Shown here: in pieces, positions 11,249 to 55,720 of the stretch | Numbering within the stretch: position 1 is the stretch's first letter | How the letters are laid out: the number at the start of each line of letters is the position of its first letter | Assembly: GCA_963840855.1 (NCBI GenBank) | Contig: CAWJBB010000002.1 | Coordinates: forward strand, 32,001-96,000 | Length of the DNA stretch: 64,000 nucleotides | Direction of reading: 5' to 3' | Source: an uncultured delta proteobacterium | GTDB taxonomy: Bacteria; Desulfobacterota; Binatia; UBA9968 | The notes under the pieces: generated by a model | Seen by the model: only the letters and a program-made list of their open reading frames with translations | What the model was told of the DNA's origin: nothing | Database searches by the model: none | Made by a program: the position numbers and the translations under genes

Positions 11249-11485
11249 TCAATGCATCAGGCGTGTGGGCGGCTGGGTGCAGCGGGAGCGGGACGAGGGT
11301 GAGTGGAGTTCCATTACAAACGCGGTGTAGTAGGTCACCAATCCGCGGACTGTCCACACCTCGGTCGTGAAGAAATCCGCCGCGAGGAGCGCCGGCCAAT
11401 GCGCGAGCAGAAAGGTGCGCCACGCCATCTGCTCGGCTCCACGCCGCATCCAGATGAGGCGTTCATCGTTCAGACGATGCGCCAC
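11249..11485 (-). pseudogene. Integrase-core (rve) transposase fragment
   Basis: 'WRTFLLAHW..LLAADFFTTEVWTVRGLVTYY..FVMEL'. Confidence 0.75.
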
Positions 11486-11950
11486 AGCGTGCCACTGAGG
11501 CCTCAACCGATGACGCGCACGCGCAGGGTGGGCCGGCGCGCATGAGTTGGGCCAGGCTGCTCAAACGAGTCTTCGACATCGACATCGAACACTGCTCGAA
11601 CTGCGGCGGCAGCTTGAAGATCATCGCCACCATCGAAGATCCGCCGTTGATTGTCAGAATCCTTATTTCATCTGGGCCTGCCGACCCGCGCCCCGCCGCA
11701 GCGATTCGATCTATTCCAGACAATCTGAGGAGCCGAAACCGGTTGCCAACGCCAGCCGACGGAGCCGCTCGCTCTGAGTTCGAGCGAGCGGCGCAATAAA
11801 AAACAAATCGCGCCTCTCCGACCGCTGCGCCGCCCAAGTCAGCCGAAGCAACACCGGGGGTTTCACTAAACGCACGTGCGCTTGACGGCTCGCGGGTTCG
11901 GCGATATAGCTCCGGGCAGAAAAAAAAGGTGATTTAAATTTCCTATACAT
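11486..11950 (+). mobile_element. IS91/ISCR-like element 3' end (transposase C-terminal remnant + oriIS-like end), copy 1
   Basis: 'MSWARLLKRVFDIDIEHCSNCGG'; ends GATTTAAATTTCCTATAC; direct repeat of 15121-15577. Confidence 0.85.
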
Positions 11951-12228
11951 ATGCATAGGATTTCCTGAGCATTGAAGAAAACCAGAAGCGAGAGAACTCG
12001 AGCGAAGAAGTTCTGACGCAACTCTGGCCCAAAGCGATCAAGCTGGCCAACGAGCTTTTGCAATGGGCGGACGCACCCTAGTAGTTATAGTTGTCCAGCT
12101 ACTTTTCTTTATTGTATTCATCCCGTCCGTCCCGGCGCAGACGGGTAGCCGTTTGCTTGACAGGCTCGATTTCACGAAACAAAAGATATCGTCCAAGGGG
12201 GACAAGCCGGCTCAGGGGTGGCGCGGTC

Positions 12229-13176
12229 ATGGGTGACTTGATTAGCATTCTGATTCCCACTAAAGGGCGTATCGACGAACTTCAGCAGCTTCTCCAGAGC
12301 TTGTCCGAAATGAACGGGCGAGACTCAATTTTTCACGAGATCTTAATCATTAATAATGCAGCCGATCAAAACACCGCCGAAAGCGTAGAAGAACTCGTTC
12401 AAAGCTACATTCGGCTCGAAGGTGATCAGTGGAAGCTCGTGCGCGAACCGGTTGCCGGTAAGTCTCGGGCTCTGAATCGAGGGATCGCACTCGCGCGTGG
12501 CAACATTTTAGCATTTCTGGACGACGACGTGGTAGTTACTCCTTCCTGGCTGACTGCAACGTCTAACTTCTTCGCGCAATCTGAATTCGACGTTAAACAG
12601 GGGGCAATCCATATTCCACCTGCTTTGATCGGGAATGAGGAGTTTCTAACGCTCTTGCGGCAATATCGAACAATATTCTATCTCATGAAAGCCGATTCCG
12701 ATGGACAAAGCATCAAGAGTCTTAACGGCGCGAATCTGGCCATAAGACGCGATCTATTACAAAAGTCGGGCTATTTCGATGAGCGACTCGGTCCCGGCGC
12801 GTCGGGAACGTCCATGGACAGCGAATTCGGCGAAAGAGTCAAAAAGGTCGGCGGACGGATCGGCTACGAATCGAAGTCGGTGGTTTATCATCAGGTCGAT
12901 TGGAGGCGACTGACCGATAAGTATTTTCGCTGGCGCAATGAAGCGGAAGGCTGGAGCAATTATCTTTATAAGGACATCAGGCTCGATGCCATCCTATCTA
13001 ACCTGCTGTGCTCGACCGCCCGCTTCTGCTTCTATTCGTTATTGGGTTCGAAGCGCAAAAAATACCGTATGAAGGGACGATGCTTCCGCTATCATGTCAT
13101 GCTGAAAGCGAAGCTGCGCGACCGCGGCAACTACGCAACATCTTCTTTTAAATTGCGATTGAGGCGTCAACATTGA
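12229..13176 (+). CDS. Glycosyltransferase family 2
   Basis: 'ISILIPTKGR', 'GKSRALNRG', 'AFLDDD', 'GANLAIRR', 'FDERLG'. Confidence 0.9.
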   Translation: MGDLISILIPTKGRIDELQQLLQSLSEMNGRDSIFHEILIINNAADQNTAESVEELVQSYIRLEGDQWKLVREPVAGKSRALNRGIALARGNILAFLDDDVVVTPSWLTATSNFFAQSEFDVKQGAIHIPPALIGNEEFLTLLRQYRTIFYLMKADSDGQSIKSLNGANLAIRRDLLQKSGYFDERLGPGASGTSMDSEFGERVKKVGGRIGYESKSVVYHQVDWRRLTDKYFRWRNEAEGWSNYLYKDIRLDAILSNLLCSTARFCFYSLLGSKRKKYRMKGRCFRYHVMLKAKLRDRGNYATSSFKLRLRRQH

Positions 13177-13290
13177 TGAGAAGTCTCGTCAAGTCTCGGC
13201 TGAAAGCTGTCGCCTAAAGGAAAGCCCAAGGTTTTGCTCGCGTCAAAGACGCTGAGTGATCGTTCCATACAGGTCGTGAAAGAGAGGATC

Positions 13291-14391
13291 ATGCAACCTT
13301 TCCGCGTAATGTACATCGTCAAGCAGTTTCCACAAATCTCGGAGAGCTATATCAAAACCGAGATCGAGGCGATCCAGGGAAAATGCGAAGTCAGGATCAT
13401 CACCACAAAGAAAGCATCGATGCCGGCGACGAATCACCCGCCTTTTTGCCATATCGATAAACTGGCAACGATTCGGGAAGCGATTGAAGACTTTCGGCCC
13501 CACGTCCTCCATACCCACTGGCTTCATTCCGCCCGATTGCTCGGAGAACTCTCCAAACAATGTAAAATCCCATTCACGGTCAGGACTCACTCCTTCGACT
13601 CAATCTGGGACGATACTCATGTTACGTCAGGCTGGAGGCGAATTTTCGGCCGCAGCTCCCTACCGCCTCATGTTCGTGAAGCTATTGGGTTCATTCGTAG
13701 CCACCGATGTTTGGGTATCCTCGCCTTTCCGTTCAACCGCGCTCGGTTGGAAAAGGCGGGTATCGCCGGAGATAAGATCACCGACTGCCATCCGGTGGTG
13801 AACTATCCGCTGTTCCATGACACCGGGCCCAATGGCGATGCAATCATGAACGTCGGCGCTGCCATCACAAAAAAGAAAATGGAAGATTTCATTGATCTCG
13901 GGTCGATGCTACCCGAGCGAAGCTTTAATTTGTACGCGATGGCTTATGACGTCGACAAGCTCCACAAACTCAACGAGTCCAAAGGGAAGCCGATCAACAT
14001 CGTCACCCCCATCGAGCTCGAGGACATGCCGGCGCAGTATAAAAAACACGAATGGCTTGTCTATACCGCGCGCATGGATATGGCCAGTGTCGGCTGGCCT
14101 ATGTCCGTCGCCGAAGCCCAAGCCTCGGGAGTCGGAGTTTGCGTCGCCAATATCCGTCCCGATCTAAAAGAATACGTCGGGGACGCCGGCTTCTTGTTTA
14201 ATTCCGTCGGTGAAGCCCTGGAAATCATCACCAAGCCGTTCCCGGAGGAAATGCGACAAAGGGGATTTGATCAAGCCAAGAAGTCCAATATCTTTGAGCA
14301 TCGAGCACTGCTTTTTAAACTCTGGCAAAAGGCCAGTCCGGCACATTTCCAAGACCACCAAGAAGAAATTCAAGCCGAGATCAGCACTTAA
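13291..14391 (+). CDS. Glycosyltransferase, GT-B fold (GT4-like)
   Basis: 'FPQISESYIKTEI', 'LHTHW', 'GWPMSVAEAQASG'. Confidence 0.85.
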   Translation: MQPFRVMYIVKQFPQISESYIKTEIEAIQGKCEVRIITTKKASMPATNHPPFCHIDKLATIREAIEDFRPHVLHTHWLHSARLLGELSKQCKIPFTVRTHSFDSIWDDTHVTSGWRRIFGRSSLPPHVREAIGFIRSHRCLGILAFPFNRARLEKAGIAGDKITDCHPVVNYPLFHDTGPNGDAIMNVGAAITKKKMEDFIDLGSMLPERSFNLYAMAYDVDKLHKLNESKGKPINIVTPIELEDMPAQYKKHEWLVYTARMDMASVGWPMSVAEAQASGVGVCVANIRPDLKEYVGDAGFLFNSVGEALEIITKPFPEEMRQRGFDQAKKSNIFEHRALLFKLWQKASPAHFQDHQEEIQAEIST

Positions 14392-14657
14392 GAAAAATTC
14401 CTTGGGGCAGGGTTCTGAGTTTGCCGATTGGAAGTCGACTCCTGTTCTCATCGTTCAGCGGAGCCAGAAGGTTTCCTTGAAAATGAAATCTTATCAGTTC
14501 GCTCTGAGCCTGGCCGAAGGGCACCGAGTCTTTACACAATCAGTTGAAGGGCGGGGCTTTGTGCAAGCTCAAACTATCCAAAAGCCGGGAGGGATTCTGA
14601 ACTGCGCGTGGTATCTGGGTTTCTCATCGAAGAGCAAGGCATGACCTAAGCTCGCTT

Positions 14658-15362
14658 TTGCCCCTGCAAGCGGCCTCGTGCACCTACCGCCTTGCGCTCG
14701 GGCCACGAGCGGGACAGAAGGTGCTGAGCTTGCAAAGCCTGCCGAGCGCAGACAAATCATCCACACCGGACCTGTGTGCCAAACTCCACGGCTTCACTCT
14801 TCATGCGGCAGTGCGCTGGGGCGCCGATCAGCGCCAACAACTGGAGCACCTGTGCCGCTATATCACCCGCCCGGCGATCGCCAATGAACGGCTCAAGCGT
14901 AACCGCGCCGGCCAAGTCGTGTTGCAACTAAAGAGTTCATACAAAGACGGCACCACCCATATCGTCATGGCGCCGCTGGAATTCATGCAGCGCCTCGCCG
15001 CCCTGGTGCCCCGTCCGCGCTTACATCTGATCCCGTTCGACAGGCTCAGGGCAGGCCGCTTCCATGGCGTGCTCGCGCCCAACGCGAAGTTGCGGGGTAA
15101 AATCATTCCTAGTCCGGCGGAGCGTGCCACTGAGGCTTCAACCGATGACGCGCACGCGCAGGGTGGGCCGGCGCGCATGAGTTGGGCCAGGCTGCTCAAA
15201 CGAGTCTTCGACATCGACATCGAACACTGCTCGAACTGCGGCGGCAGCTTGAAGATCATCGCCACCATCGAAGATCCGCCGTTGATTGTCAGAATCCTTA
15301 TTCATCTGGGCCTGCCGACCCGCGCCCCGCCGCAGCGATTCGATCTATTCCAGACAATCTGA
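14658..15362 (+). pseudogene. IS91-family (Y2/ISCR-like) rolling-circle transposase, 5'-truncated
   Basis: 'GFTLHA', 'LEHLCRYITRPAIANERL', 'DGTTHIVMAPLEFMQRLAALVPRPRLHL..RFHGVLAPN', 'WARLLKRVF'; N-terminal HUH region absent. Confidence 0.9.
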
Positions 15363-15577
15363 GGAGCCGAAACCGGTTGCCAACGCCAGCCGACGGAGCC
15401 GCTCGCTCTGAGTTCGAGCGAGCGGCGCAATAAAAAACAAATCGCGCCTCTCCGACCGCTGCGCCGCCCAAGTCAGCCGAAGCAACACCGGGGGTTTCAC
15501 TAAACGCACGTGCGCTTGACGGCTCGCGGGTTCGGCGATATAGCTCCGGGCAGAAAAAAAGTTGTTTAAATTTCCTA
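15121..15577 (+). mobile_element. IS91/ISCR-like 3' end with oriIS-like motif, copy 2 (split by intron; continues 16589-16593)
   Basis: Near-identical to 11486-11950; GTTTAAATTTCCTA|intron|TACAT. Confidence 0.85.
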
Positions 15578-16588
15578 GGAGCGGCCAGCAGAGCCGCGAG
15601 ACTTGGAAGGTGAAAGTCCTTCTGCCGTCAATTGCTCGATTCGGACGGCTAGCATATCCACTGCTCGGCGAGGTAACGGACCGAGATAGGCGTGGACGTA
15701 AAAGCCACGGCTGCCCAGTGCAGGGAACGGCGGTGGGTCGGGGCCATGGGAATCGGACTGAGGGCCAGTGCGAAAGCGCTGGATTACCCACCGAACCCTA
15801 AAGCGGCGATACCCTGCTGGACCAATAGGCTGCGCTGAGGTGGGAACGACCTGGGTGGCGAGCAAATCCGGAGGCCTGAACATCAGAGAATGGCTGCAGC
15901 CCCGAAATTAAACCCCGGACTGAAGTCGTTGTCCGGATCTTGTGGAGTGCCGACCCAGTTAGGAAATGGGGAAGGCCGATGTCCTGTGGGAAGAAACGAG
16001 TAAGCGCACCACAGGGACCGCCGGGGTAAGGGTCCAGGCATCTGGGGAAAGATTTGAGGGTGTAACGCTGGGAAGGTGCTATGTCCAGCAGGGGCTGGTG
16101 GCAACCTGCAAAGACCTGTCGACCAAGGCTATGACCGTAGGTGGCAGGAGGGCATAGGATTGGCGCATGAGCCCGTAGGAGCGACGAAGAAGGGGTAACA
16201 CCCTTCGAGGAGACGCATCAGGTCTCCCTCTGGGTCGGTAACGCCGGCCGGAGGCGAAGGGGCTCTGGGTACTTGGTGGTCCCAGGTGGGAGGCGGTTCC
16301 GGACACAGAGCCGGGAGTTAACCGACCTTCGAAGCAGGGACTAGTTTGTGAGCAAACCAGTTGCGGCGGGGTGTACGCGTACCAGCGCTTTAGCTTCGAT
16401 GCGATCTGGGAAGGCGAACAAAGGAAAGGCCAAGATCAGAACCGGACTCGGGAAACCCGACCGTCCGGGATCGCAGGGAGGCTTGTGGAAACGTGGTGAT
16501 TATGGGAGCCGGACTGAGGCCCATCGGGAAACCGATGGATTAGCCACCGTACCCTACCATTACGCGCGCGCCACATTTCTATCCCGAC
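15578..16588 (+). ncRNA. ORF-less group II (IIB-type) intron
   Basis: 5' (G)GAGCG; domain V GAACCGGACTCGG-GAAA-CCCGACCGTCCGGGATC at 16439-16472; domain VI with bulged A16581, 3' end CCCGAC; EBS1 TAGGAAA (15960-15966) and EBS2 TTAAAC (15908-15913) match the 5' exon. Confidence 0.9.
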
Positions 16589-16593
16589 TACAT

Positions 16594-16838
16594 TGCCGTG
16601 ACAATGACGTTCTTGGTGACGAGCGTCGCGGCGCAGAACGTGCCGTTCGTCTCATCGGCGAAAGCCCCGACGCCGCGTAGCGCTGACCCGCTGCCGTTCC
16701 GCCAATCAGCTGTCCTTTGTCCATCGAGGGATCATCATCGCCAGCTTCCGTCGCGGACGAGCAACCGACGGTGGCGAGGATGGACGTCACCAGAGTCTGG
16801 CGAGAGCCCCGAGATATGCCGAGCGCATACCGAGCCAA
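16594..16838 (-). pseudogene. 5' fragment of trypsin-like (S1) serine protease lipoprotein, truncated at the oriIS junction
   Basis: Lipobox-like 'TVGC'; 'LIGGT..YAA', then after a frameshift 'VGAF...TFCAATLVTKNVIVTA', stopping just before the expected xHC. Confidence 0.65.
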
Positions 16839-52644: not shown

Positions 52645-54140
52645 ATGAACGTACTGCTTCTCTCAATGCCGGATTCATTTGAGCACACGCCGACTATTAG
52701 CATCCGAATGCCCAACGGGGCCTCACTTCCCTCGCGGGAAACGCCGACCCGCACCATCACATAGCCGTCGCCGATCTCATCTTGGTCCAGAGCTCTGTTC
52801 GAGCAACCCTCGAACACCTCATGAAAACATTACAGCCAGATCTGGTGGGTCTTTCGGTCATGACGTTTCAGCGTAAAACGGCCAAAAAAATCATCGATGT
52901 ATTGCGTTCGCTCAAGCCAAGCGTCCGCGTTGTCGTGGGCGGTTATGATCCGAGTGTGGCGCTGCAAGCTTATACCGACGATTCCGGTAGCCTGGTTGAC
53001 TTTATCGTCCGCGGCGAAGGTGAGATCACTTTTCGCGAACTGTTGCGGGCCATCGAAATCGGCGGCGGCTATGAGGGAATTCTAGGTTTGTCTTTTCGCG
53101 AGGACGGTCGTTTCCGACACAATCCCGATCGTCCGGTGAGCGGCCTTGATGGGGGTGAGATACGGCTCCCCAACCGCGACGCACGGGTCCTCAGCGGCTA
53201 CACGATGATGGGCCGCCAAGTCGACATCGTTGAAACCTCTCGTGGTTGTACTTTTGATTGCAGCTTCTGCTCGATCGTCACTATGCGGGGTCGTCAATTC
53301 CACACGTATTCGTTCGATCGGGTACTGGCGGATATACGGGATGCCCGCGATCACGGCGCACGATCAATTTTCTTAGTCGACGATAATATCACGCTGAACG
53401 TGCGACGATTCGAAGCTCTGTGCCACGCGATTATAGACACGCGGCTGCATCACTTGGATTACTTTGTCCAGGCGATGACCTCAGCTATCGCCAACTACAG
53501 CGACAAACTCGTGCCGTTGATGCGCAAAGCTGGCTTTCGCTATGTTTTCCTCGGCATTGAGAACATCCTCGAAGCTGATCTGAAGTTCCTCCGCGCCGCC
53601 TCTAAGAATGCGCAGCGCGAAAATGGCCGAAGCACCGGCAACGCCACCCTCAAAGCCATCGGCGCGCTGCGCAAAAATAAGATGTATGTCGTAGGAGGCC
53701 TTATCATAGGCAACCCGGGAGATACACGCGACTCGATTAAGGCCAACCTTGACTTCGCGCGACGGCATGTCGATTGGCCTTACATTCAGCACCCCACCCC
53801 TTATCCTCGAACAGCGATGACTCAAGATTTTCAGAAGCGCAGGTTGATTATCGACGAGCGGCCGGAAAACTATGATGGCATTACGGCGGTGGTCAGAAAC
53901 GATCATTTAACGGCCGAGGAGATCGAATTTCTCAGATGGCGCGCCGAGCGCTGGATGAAACTTCGACACATGCCGGCGGTTTTCTGTCACGACCCATTGT
54001 TTATCTTGCGCCATGGCGCAAGGATTCTCGCACATATTTTTCGCGGCGTGACCTTAAAGACTCTGTTTGGCCTTGAAAATGAACGTAAAGCGTTTGAACG
54101 CTACCGCGCGATTCGTCAGGCGGAGCGGATGTATGTTTAA
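52645..54140 (+). CDS. B12-binding domain / radical SAM protein, frameshift near 52721
   Basis: 'MNVLLLSMPD..MPNGA', 'VVGGYD', 'RGCTFDCSFC', 'LVDDNI'. Confidence 0.85.
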
Positions 54141-54235: not shown

Positions 54236-54500
54236 AGATGTAGAAAGCAGCTCGGAAACCTTTCAGTGAAACCTTGTCGGTAACCAAGCCGGCCCGGGAA
54301 GGCCTAACCCGCTCCCGGAAGCGAGTCTTGCGCAGCGGTGGGGCAACCCATGCGGCGAAGCGTAGACAGCGAGTGCCAAGGCCCGGCTATTGAGCTTCGA
54401 AAGTTTCCAAGTGTGAGCCTTCGTCGTTCCCCTCACGGGGGCCATGCGGAGCGCACCGCTAGGGCGAGCAGCGCGCCGCGCACCACCGAGCCGAAGAGAA
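54236..54500 (+). ncRNA. Group II intron 5' (domain I) fragment
   Basis: 'GAAGCGAGTCTTGCG..GCGAAGCGTAGACAGCG..CTATTGAGCTTCGAAA' pattern; no domain V nearby. Confidence 0.6.
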
Positions 54501-54658
54501 AAGGGGTCGGACCCTGATCGTTTGCGGACGCTATAACCCTGAGGACCGCTTAAATTCTGTGCTCATAGCGAGCGATTGTGGCCTAAAGACCCGCTCGTGA
54601 CCGAATCGCACAAGCTGGATATCTCGATATCTAGACCAGGATGCGATACAAGGGCAGG

Positions 54659-55720
54659 ATGTTTGACTGGAAGCGCTGTGGTCCGATCGCAGCACGCGGT
54701 GTCCTTTTCCTCGCGGCGTTGACCGGTGCCAACAGTATCGCCACAGCTCAAACTGCGCCTTTTTATCAAGGCAAAACGATCCGTCTCGTAGTCGGCTCGC
54801 CGCCGGGCGGTTTCTACGATCGCGCCGCGCGACTGCTCGCGCGCTATATGGGGAAATATTTGCCTGGCAATCCTGAAATCATTGTGCAGAACATGCCCGG
54901 CGCCGGGTCCCTGGTGGCCACCAACTACATCTATTCTGTCGCTAAAAGCGACGGCCTAACGATCGGCATGCCGCTCAGTTACATCTATCTGGACCAGCTC
55001 ACCGGTAAGCCGGAGGCCAAGTTTGATGTGCGCAAGCTCACCTGGATCGGCGCCCTCGATAAAACCCCGGCGATTTTGTACATGCGCGCCGATACCCCCT
55101 ATCGGACGATTGAAGATGTCGCAAAAGCCAAAGAGCCGCCCAAGTGCGGCGCTTCCGGGATTTCGAGCGGGAGCAATATTTTGGTGCGCGCTCTGGAGGA
55201 AGCCCTGGGCATCAAATTCACCATGGTCTTGGGGTATCCAGGAGGTTCCGAAATTGATTTGGCCGTGGAAAAGGGCGAAATCGTCTGCGCAGGGATGACA
55301 TTATACGCGCACTTCGGGCGCGAACCCTTTGGCACGTGGCACAAAAAGAATTTTGACCGGCACCTTGTTCAGACCGGTCGCAAACGCGATCCGCGGGCGG
55401 CGGAGGTGCCGACTCTTTATGAGCTGATGGAAAAGTTCAAGACACCAGAGATCAGCCGCCGCCTGATTCGCGTGTTATTTGCCGGCGACGAGTACGGCCA
55501 TCCGATGATTGCGCCGCCGGAGACGCCGGCCGATCGCGTCAGACTTTTGCGCGAGGCATACGCCAAAGTGCTAAACGATCCCGATCTTTTGGCCGAGGCA
55601 AAAAAAGGCAATATGGAGCTCGATCCATCAACGGGCGACGAACAGGAAGCGATCATGAAAGAGGTTGTCAACCAGCCGCCAGAGATTGTGCAAAAGATCA
55701 AAAAGCTTTTCGGAGAGTAA
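54659..55720 (+). CDS. TctC/Bug substrate-binding protein (paralog of 33838-34869)
   Basis: 'FYQGKTI..GSPPGGFYD', 'VQNMPGAG', 'GYPGG..LAVEKGE'. Confidence 0.9.
   Translation: MFDWKRCGPIAARGVLFLAALTGANSIATAQTAPFYQGKTIRLVVGSPPGGFYDRAARLLARYMGKYLPGNPEIIVQNMPGAGSLVATNYIYSVAKSDGLTIGMPLSYIYLDQLTGKPEAKFDVRKLTWIGALDKTPAILYMRADTPYRTIEDVAKAKEPPKCGASGISSGSNILVRALEEALGIKFTMVLGYPGGSEIDLAVEKGEIVCAGMTLYAHFGREPFGTWHKKNFDRHLVQTGRKRDPRAAEVPTLYELMEKFKTPEISRRLIRVLFAGDEYGHPMIAPPETPADRVRLLREAYAKVLNDPDLLAEAKKGNMELDPSTGDEQEAIMKEVVNQPPEIVQKIKKLFGE

Follow-up and report, generated by a model that had tools for sequence, protein, structure and literature searches.

Group II introns without an open reading frame (ORF) that are mobilized in trans, introns nested within other introns (twintrons) and homing into insertion sequences (IS) are already known from bacteria (PMC2882425; PMC4424553). 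The closest described system is that of the TeI3 introns of Thermosynechococcus elongatus (Mohr, Ghanem and Lambowitz, 2010; PMC2882425), which are ORF-less and mobilized by the 'driver' proteins of other introns, and some of which have evolved to target one conserved site within an insertion sequence or within a further group II intron. Here we describe an arrangement of this kind in a 64,000-nucleotide stretch of DNA, the whole of which we call the window, from an uncultured delta proteobacterium (Desulfobacterota, Binatia, UBA9968; assembly GCA_963840855.1, contig CAWJBB010000002.1, positions 32,001 to 96,000 of the forward strand). An ORF-less group II-type intron of 1,011 nt (15578-16588, + strand) interrupts a fragment of an IS91/ISCR-type rolling-circle transposon, five nucleotides from the end that would carry the rolling-circle origin, oriIS. 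We consider it highly probable that the insert is a retroelement-type insertion of an ORF-less, group II-derived ribozyme, guided by base pairing of its exon-binding sites (EBS), and that it comes from a retargeting family distributed across phyla.

The TeI3 introns are recent deletion derivatives of a co-resident intron that encodes a reverse transcriptase (RT); they occupy one genome and retain visible remnants of the ORF (PMC2882425). In contrast, the family to which the window's element belongs has no RT-encoding parent among the loci that we collected, occurs in many phyla and has a non-canonical core, and its target in the window is a cis-acting origin rather than an ORF. The nested introns of Methanosarcina acetivorans (Dai and Zimmerly, 2003, via PMC4424553) are ORF-less introns that home into group II introns, like many members of our family; the window's copy differs from them in not lying within an intron and in features of its catalytic core.

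A first-pass annotation of the window, made from the sequence alone, suspected that intron insertions at the oriIS of ISCR or IS91 elements might have precedent; none was found among the papers listed in literature searches on group II introns with oriIS, IS91 or ISCR. RmInt1 of Sinorhizobium meliloti homes in an insertion sequence, ISRm2011-2; it encodes its own RT, and its position within the transposase gene allows the mRNA to be restored by splicing. The group IIC-attC introns of integrons are of class IIC, encode an RT and recognize a stem-loop, their target being attC and not oriIS. They likewise form a lineage specialized on a cis-acting recombination site of another mobile system, and not on a gene (PMC3001079).

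Insertion at the end of an IS91/ISCR-type element

The insert begins with GGAGC and ends with CUAUCCCGAC. It matches the profile of the family described below over profile positions 1-909 of 909 (nhmmer, 674.9 bits), and shows sub-threshold similarity to Rfam group II models. It lies between CCTA and TACAT, 5 nt from the oriIS-side terminus of the host element and in the orientation of the transposase (tnp) gene, with no target duplication. Excising 15578-16588 regenerates an 18-mer terminal motif, TTTAAATTTCCTATACAT, through which TACAT (16589-16593, + strand) was recognized as the 3' exon and the final five nucleotides of the host fragment; the DNA after TACAT is unrelated to the element. 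The 3' boundary, directly after CCCGAC, was fixed independently by the family consensus, and the 5' boundary by the restored target together with an EBS1 helix anchored at exon position -1. The first-pass coordinates of the insert, the guide and target sequences, the EBS1 stem and TACAT all proved correct, as did the restoration of the target by excision. The insert is a single copy in its genome, and none of its seven ORFs of at least 60 aa, on both strands, has a Pfam match, in agreement with its description as ORF-less.

The interrupted host fragment, copy B, extends to the left of the insert over 14648-15577 (+ strand), and consists of a transposase remnant and the oriIS-side non-coding end of a 5'-truncated element. 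The remnant, ORF 14658-15362, matches Pfam Y2_Tnp at 65.7 bits (cut-off 20.9). Its best NCBIfam match is to ISCR clade Ia, over positions 273-487 of 509 of the profile and at 189.6 bits against a cut-off of 925, while the NCBIfam IS91-family model gives 41 bits, under its cut-off of 125. These scores support placing the host in the IS91/ISCR superfamily of HUH rolling-circle transposons, and not in the named clade Ia. The span of the NCBIfam match and the alignment to other copies both show that copy B has lost the N-terminus of the transposase. A second fragment, copy A (11465-11950, + strand, 486 bp), is an oriIS-side piece of the same repeated element on the same strand, 3.6 kb away; it repeats 15121-15577, and alignments to other copies in the genome reach 11946-11951. 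Copy A carries the terminal motif TTTAAATTTCCTATACAT uninterrupted at 11933-11950 (+ strand; exact pattern match G000:C2:43933-43950), and thus serves as an empty site that terminates in TTTCCTATACAT at 11939-11950.

The genome assembly of the window (7.1 Mb in 93 contigs, 94% complete) holds 13 Y2_Tnp matches and 25 matches to the 18-mer with at most three mismatches, four of them exact; the reversed pattern, used as a control, gave two. When other copies of the element were aligned to copy B, seven of nine alignments stopped at 15577, one at 15570 and one at 14909. The 12 motif matches that we read, out of the 25, lie 210-500 nt downstream of transposase ORFs; the copies are alike up to TATAC(A/G)(T/G) and unrelated beyond it, which makes the motif the element's terminus on the side that follows the transposase gene. 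Published oriIS ends are also reported to read ...CCTATAC.... In ISCR1 and IS91 the side downstream of the transposase gene is the oriIS side (PMC6218425; PMC13181058), and by analogy with these elements we infer from its position that the motif end is the oriIS side of the host. The first-pass identification of an ORF-less group II-type ribozyme at the oriIS-side end of an ISCR/IS91-type element is supported, the nature of the host element by its Y2_Tnp and NCBIfam matches.

Pairing between the guide loops and the target

The last 14 bases of the 5' exon contain the two intron-binding sites (IBS) of the element. IBS1, TTTCCTA (15571-15577, + strand), forms the last 7 nt of the exon and is complementary to EBS1, the loop UAGGAAA (15960-15966) of a hairpin at 15954-15970 (+ strand) with the stem CCCA (15954-15957)/UGGG (15967-15970). 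IBS2, GTTTAA (15564-15569, + strand), is complementary to EBS2, UUAAAC (15908-15913, + strand), which directly follows the conserved sequence CCCCGAAA. The copy can form 7 + 6 Watson-Crick pairs with its exon, so that 13 of the last 14 exon bases are paired, with one unpaired base between the two helices. Both guides fall in the EBS loops of the domain I fold, a point that the first-pass annotation had put forward beforehand as a test. EBS1 occupies the terminal loop of its hairpin in the alignment to the Rfam model D1D4-6, which puts UUAGGAAA in the loop of the model hairpin, as well as in an RNAalifold consensus of 60 family members, in which EBS2 is unpaired.

Pairing with the flank is a property of the family as a whole. 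In the family alignment, the six bases 3' of CCCCGAAA and the loop of the hairpin that precedes GAAGGCCGAUG vary from copy to copy and match the 5' flank of their own copy. Across 50 distinct combinations of element and flank, with G-U pairs allowed, the EBS1 helix anchored at exon position -1 has a mean length of 6.8 bp and reaches at least 7 bp in 43; with permuted flanks (200 trials) the mean is 3.49 and the maximum 4.1 bp. The best EBS2 helix averages 5.82 bp, compared with a mean of 3.78 and a maximum of 4.16 for permuted flanks over the same number of trials and combinations. No permutation reached either observed mean. The seven combinations with weak EBS1 pairing include downstream members of head-to-tail tandem arrays.

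The first-pass annotation noted a mismatch in the IBS2 of copy A (ATTTAA). This mismatch does not account for the emptiness of copy A: six of the 12 terminal motifs read in the genome carry the perfect 14-base target GTTTAAATTTCCTA and are empty nonetheless.

These observations are consistent with a mechanism in which excised intron RNA would reverse-splice into the transposase-sense strand between CCTA and TACAT, with the target chosen by pairing of EBS1 (7 bp) and EBS2 (6 bp) with the 5' exon. A cDNA would then be made by an RT encoded elsewhere, as has been demonstrated for the TeI3 introns with their driver proteins (PMC2882425). The need for a trans-acting RT, already proposed in the first-pass annotation, follows from the absence of any RT ORF in the insert; we infer that cDNA synthesis depended on an RT made elsewhere.

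An alternative is that a fragment of the IS landed beside an intron that was already there, in which case TACAT and the EBS complementarity would be coincidental. The distance of just 5 nt between the insert and the end of IS similarity is what such a juxtaposition could produce. However, these 5 nt complete an exact 18-mer motif, a match with a chance of about 1 in 1,000 because the boundary after CCCGAC was fixed independently by the family consensus; 13 Watson-Crick pairs join EBS1 and EBS2 to the flank in the right register; and the same arrangement recurs at two further loci, L117 and L110, described below. We regard the probability of juxtaposition as close to negligible.

An ORF-less family in many phyla

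BLAST found sisters of about 70% identity in one genome from the same order (G045; two contigs) and on plasmids of Niallia and Mycobacterium riyadhense; a Cupriavidus plasmid holds a 3' fragment of 250 nt that is 83% identical. The sisters all have the same domain V. A search with the domain V pattern in a collection holding one genome per species returned at least 120 stretches, and the matches listed span Bacillota, Actinomycetota, Acidobacteriota, Desulfobacterota, Planctomycetota, Nitrospirota, Chlamydiota, Beta- and Gammaproteobacteria and others, along with two archaeal bins. A family profile built from 52 distinct full-length copies, and run with nhmmer over the loci L002-L143 and the window, gave 148 matches. 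Sixty-four of these are full length, at 805-1,102 nt, and the window's copy is the second longest among them. The first five bases are GGAGC in 54, GGAGT in six, TGAGC in two, and GGAAC and GTAGC in one each, so that the latter ten are one base off.

All 64 full-length copies must lack an RT gene, because at 805-1,102 nt they are too short to hold one. No RT-encoding member was found among the loci collected, where the long open frames upstream of 3' fragments were scanned in part. The sole long domain IV insertion that we examined, of 1.57 kb in L052, was considered as a possible RT gene and rejected, since it encodes a DDE_5 transposase. This gene (L052 3449-4873, - strand, 474 aa) lies inside domain IV of the intron, an IS within an intron. 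We also rejected as close relatives a set of RT-encoding introns of about 2 kb that share a module in domain VI with the window's element: they start with GUGCC, have a canonical domain V and pass RF00029, and score only 20-28 bits against the family profile in nhmmer.

The family shows several marks of mobility. Near-identical copies are present at several sites per genome in assemblies of several Solirubrobacteraceae, of Gracilibacillus and of Acidobacteriota. Many 5'-truncated copies retain the exact 3' end, at about 20 other loci besides L002, and many of them start near domain IV (profile 640-725); such copies are what abortive cDNA synthesis from the 3' end would be expected to yield. 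At L102 (three copies with an 859-nt period), L118 and L094, copies stand head to tail with no spacer (...CCCGAC/GGAGC...). The downstream copies of these arrays have no EBS/IBS match to the end of the intron upstream, and ordinary homing therefore does not explain the arrays.

Flanks read by eye show where the copies reside. For eleven of the 64 full-length copies, the site is the terminal loop in a different group II intron's domain V, as with the copy between GAGCCGUGUGCGGGAG and AACCGCAUGCACGG. Insertions of this kind in RT-encoding host introns were seen at L042, L105, L126, L132, L014, L098, L033, L127, L096, L064 and L031, and also at L004; some of these sites directly follow a stop codon that may end the host ORF. 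With an inner element in its domain V loop, the host would be able to splice only once that element had been removed. Another seven of the 64, together with the copy on the Niallia plasmid, share one site in domain I of a host intron, and the remaining copies lie partly in genome-specific repeats. The family thus lives mostly in other mobile DNA, and the residence of many members inside RT-encoding introns fits a dependence on a foreign RT.

Sister introns do occur at unrelated sites, an outcome that the first-pass annotation counted against a programmed target, but their EBS sequences change with the site, which amounts to retargeting. As judged from the aligned copies and their flanks, this is a cross-phylum family of ORF-less introns of 0.8-1.1 kb that retarget through their EBS loops. 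We found no description of an ORF-less family with a 5' GGAGC and an AAC domain V in the literature searched. A 2022 census found ORF-less introns through the Rfam domain V/VI model RF00029 (PMC8919778). RF00029 misses the window's element, and the family appears to be an overlooked kind: ORF-less, present in many phyla, and apparently mobile by means of retargeted guides.

Fold and catalytic core

The six domains of the element follow the normal group II order. At Rfam gathering thresholds there is no match to the insert, and the sole match in the window is an unrelated D1D4-6 at 54285-54500. In a permissive search, D1D4-4 matched 15604-15732 at 39.9 bits (E 4.9e-07) and D1D4-6 matched 15863-16036 at 21.9 bits, both below the D1D4 gathering score of 49, which a sister at L014 just attains for D1D4-4 (49.9). 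The class check with Infernal recommended in the first-pass annotation thus yielded sub-threshold similarity to two of the models for domains I-IV but nothing for RF00029.

By definition, a group II intron has a GUGYG 5' end and a 34-nt domain V with a 2-nt bulge and the triad AGC (CGC in class IIC), the G of the triad being in a G-U pair; the branch-point A bulged from domain VI stands 7-8 nt from the 3' splice site, and the 3' end is AY. With canonical introns of the IIA/IIB type (RF00029, D1D4) the element shares the order of domains, EBS1 and EBS2, a domain V of 34 nt that contains a 2-nt bulge, a bulged A situated 6-7 nt before a 3' end in AC, and insertion without target duplication. The domain V-like hairpin, supported by folding and co-variation, lies at 16439-16472 (+ strand) and has a CC bulge. 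Its closing pair co-varies among the 46 copies compared (G-C in 31, C-G in 12, A-U, G-U and unpaired in one each), as does one inner pair in three of 46. Domain VI (16476-16585, + strand, from the consensus fold) is a long hairpin with the basal stem GGGAGG/CUAUCCC; the bulged A, a branch-point feature of group II introns, is at 16581, 7 nt before the last intron base at 16588, and the intron ends in GAC. The basal stem and the CUA are conserved across the family, with G-C to A-U changes read by eye.

A module of about 55 nt, GGGAGCCGGACUGAGG...GAAA...GGAUUAGCCACCGUACCCUA, is inserted in domain VI (16503-16557), and other family members carry different modules at the same position. It recurs with compensatory stem changes in domain I (15748-15800, + strand), where cross-matches identify a diverged duplicate within an insertion of about 95 nt (~15725-15820). 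This domain I insertion is private to the window's copy, being a gap in the other 51 of the 52 distinct aligned copies, and a metagenome DNA contig that joins 15720 to 15835 with 14 other letters between them represents a close relative lacking it. The unrelated RT-encoding introns mentioned above, about 2 kb long and from another genus, carry this module too in their domain VI (among L006, L022 and L154-L157).

Recurrent insertion at rolling-circle ends

Three family copies lie at ISCR/IS91-type ends, all in transposase-sense orientation: the window's copy, L117 and L110. At L117, from a gammaproteobacterial bin, the intron is preceded by GGTTGGATTTCCTA and followed by TCCC; the 360 bases upstream share 75% identity with the sequence that follows a Y2_Tnp match at another place in that genome, where a related uninterrupted end reads ...TTTCCTATCC. 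At L110, from a Thermoanaerobaculia bin, the flank GGAAATTCCTATC lies about 245 nt downstream of the C-terminal remnant of an ISCR-like transposase; at its C-terminus this upstream ORF matches both the final part of the ISCR model (32 bits, E 3.6e-08) and the tail of the window's transposase. The three copies do not group in a FastTree tree of 60 distinct copies (midpoint-rooted, supports disregarded), which suggests that the oriIS-end niche may have been reached more than once. A copy on plasmid p1 of Cupriavidus sp. KK10 (L002 2976-3224), whose 3' flank is CACAT, was considered as a further case and rejected: it is a 250-nt 5'-truncated fragment, hundreds of kilobases from every Y2_Tnp match of the plasmid. 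A tblastn search of the loci collected with a longer ISCR-type transposase from the window's genome found no further transposase beside family copies.

With the nick polarity of the general HUH model and the bottom-strand intermediate reported for IS91 (PMC13181058), an insertion 3-5 nt inside the oriIS terminus would place the intron RNA directly upstream of the HUH bottom-strand cut. The 3'-OH of the flank would then face the intron, in the primer geometry of target-primed reverse transcription, which intron proteins with an endonuclease create themselves. It is conceivable, though we think it unlikely, that the lineage, with a re-wired but active catalytic core, uses the rolling-circle transposase as its missing endonuclease, with an RT from another element, and that origins are a preferred niche reached independently at least three times. 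A simpler alternative is that the ends are targeted as the most conserved multicopy sequence available. A different link to transposition, homing into the single-stranded DNA of rolling-circle transposition, was suggested in the first-pass annotation. It is at odds with strand: the IBS sequences are on the transposase-sense strand, whereas the functional intermediate of IS91 is a bottom-strand single-stranded circle (PMC13181058), if 'bottom' in that source means antisense to tnpA, as its figure legend suggests.

By analogy with the oriIS architecture described for IS91 (PMC13181058), the insert puts 1 kb between the subterminal oriIS sequences and the position of terminal cleavage and should inactivate that origin. 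Splicing could not reverse this damage, because oriIS is a cis-acting DNA site that RNA splicing cannot repair. This raises the question of whether the element is a co-opted ribozyme, an RNA-guided agent against ISCR/IS91 origins that is kept for silencing rolling-circle transposons. Such a role would resemble that of the HYER ribozymes (Liu et al., 2024, via PMC11754743), which are likewise ORF-less, group II-derived and capable of programmable DNA recognition. The expected loss of the origin, the lack of an ORF, guides that match the cis-acting DNA site of another mobile element, and the targeting of such ends by three independent lineages all suit this idea. In contrast, only one of at least seven perfect sites in the genome has been hit, the single-stranded transposition intermediate is the strand without the IBS, and the targets of the family are mainly other introns and assorted repeats, the pattern expected of a selfish element. 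HYERs are moreover of class IIC, 0.4-0.6 kb long, with about 7 bp of recognition and no EBS2 (PMC11754743), whereas the window's element is 1,011 nt long, has a co-varying EBS2 and leaves the footprint of a full insertion. A co-opted role therefore seems to us very unlikely, and mobility as a selfish, EBS-guided retroelement remains our preferred reading.

The target in the window is a cis-acting site of the kind of rolling-circle transposon that elsewhere moves resistance genes, and the pair is a clear-cut example of how a selfish element can disable or exploit a second one. The value of the system lies more in the family and its recurrent use of rolling-circle origins than in the stranded copy itself.

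Evidence against an active intron and the case for a relic

Several observations weigh against reading the insert as an EBS-guided group II-type insertion. Its 5' end is GGAGC, where the group II definition expects GUGYG. The triad position of domain V has AAC opposite GGAU, in place of AGC or CGC and of the canonical AGC...GUU, with an extra A on the 3' strand. There is no intron-encoded protein, and RF00029 has no match to the insert even at E<=10. The first-pass statement that domains V and VI look intact thus holds for the hairpin at 16439-16472 and the bulged A16581, but not for the AAC triad, the GGAGC 5' end or the RF00029 match. The uniformity of domain V is partly by construction, since the family was gathered with a domain V pattern that left only the closing pair and one inner pair free to vary; ten of the 12 pairs are invariant. 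The genome holds one copy only, and half of the 12 sites read have a perfect IBS2/IBS1 and are empty, so there is no sign of current activity. No contig joins 15577 to 16589, and no splicing was seen, in contigs that are poorly suited to show it and whose gaps in coverage carry no weight. The host copy is a truncated fragment and thus uninformative on any effect on transposition, and the ISCR/IS91 assignment is weak for L110 (32 bits) and for L117 (indirect homology).

Much of this could be explained if the insert were a dead relic, a canonical intron that lost first its ORF and then its core (AGC to AAC, GUGYG to GGAGC) and now lies inert in a decayed IS. The non-canonical 5' end and domain V, the failure of RF00029, the single copy, the empty perfect targets, the lack of an intron RT in the genome and the truncation of the host IS all agree with such a history. 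However, the same 'defects' are present in all 64 full-length copies in many phyla, and decay would not be so uniform. The closing pair of domain V shows compensating changes, as does the stem of domain VI by eye, the EBS loops fit many different flanks, and near-identical multicopy sets exist. We consider a relic distinctly unlikely. Insertion by an EBS-guided ribozyme of a mobile family, which we favor, is compatible with a copy in the window that may be immobile today.

The family-wide EBS/IBS co-variation and the near-identical multicopy sets lead us to conclude, from comparative evidence, that the ribozyme probably is or was catalytically active; the clean footprint of the insertion and the retargeting across the family are indirect signs of splicing activity. 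Because two defining features that were tested, the 5' end and the domain V triad, depart from the group II definition, we class the element not as a plain member of the group II introns but as a variant lineage that descends from them and works like them. Should the RNAs splice, they would represent natural variants of the catalytic triplex that is also found in the spliceosome, with AAC for AGC and a changed 5' end, and which core features are indispensable would become directly testable.

Source of the reverse transcriptase and traces of the RNA

The first-pass annotation looked to the genome for a relative encoding an intron-encoded protein, and the search did not produce one. The maturase domain GIIM has no match in the 94% complete assembly, and RVT_1 has one 36-bit fragment (G000:C87:47908-48111; locus L158 1441-2088), which is similar to the RT/maturase of group II introns (TIGR04416, 47.4 bits; cut-off 300). 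With no intact intron RT found and six perfect targets empty, the window's copy is probably stranded in this genome, with the caveat that binned assemblies frequently lack mobile DNA.

Assembled contigs from three metatranscriptome studies match 15604-16590 with an identity of about 95-100% and barely reach into the flanks. This is a weak hint of accumulating or stable intron RNA, and carry-over of DNA is possible. None of the public sequencing runs contains half of the sequence words of the stretch. A contig from one RNA library (run X13) is identical to the last 267 nt of the intron and 2 nt beyond (16322-16590), and then continues into a different flank. A second contig from the same run, corresponding to 15534-15577, carries the uninterrupted terminal motif as ...CCTA TACGT and runs into unrelated sequence. 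Environmental samples therefore contain the intron, in identical or near-identical copies, in other settings, and empty sites as well.

ISCR1 has outward promoters in its oriIS region (PMC6218425), and by analogy transcription through the insertion site is plausible, although a consensus scan of 15250-16750 found no promoter site here. A TTGAC-N17-GATATAGCT string followed by an A-run just before the terminal motif is common to ISCR-type ends (window 15490-15560; L169-L180), and resembles an outward promoter by eye only.

Neighboring features

Between copies A and B, two glycosyltransferase genes (12091-13176 and 13234-14391) are bracketed by the same-orientation oriIS-side fragments (window 11465-15577), an arrangement that might have originated by rolling-circle capture.

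The full-length Rfam group-II-D1D4-6 match elsewhere in the window (54285-54500, + strand, 96.2 bits) lies in the 500 nt that separate a radical SAM/B12-binding gene (52782-54140) from a TctC-family gene (54641-55720). Its surroundings show neither an RT ORF nor a match to domain V, and the sequence represents either a lone fragment of a group II domain I or a structured RNA in its own right.

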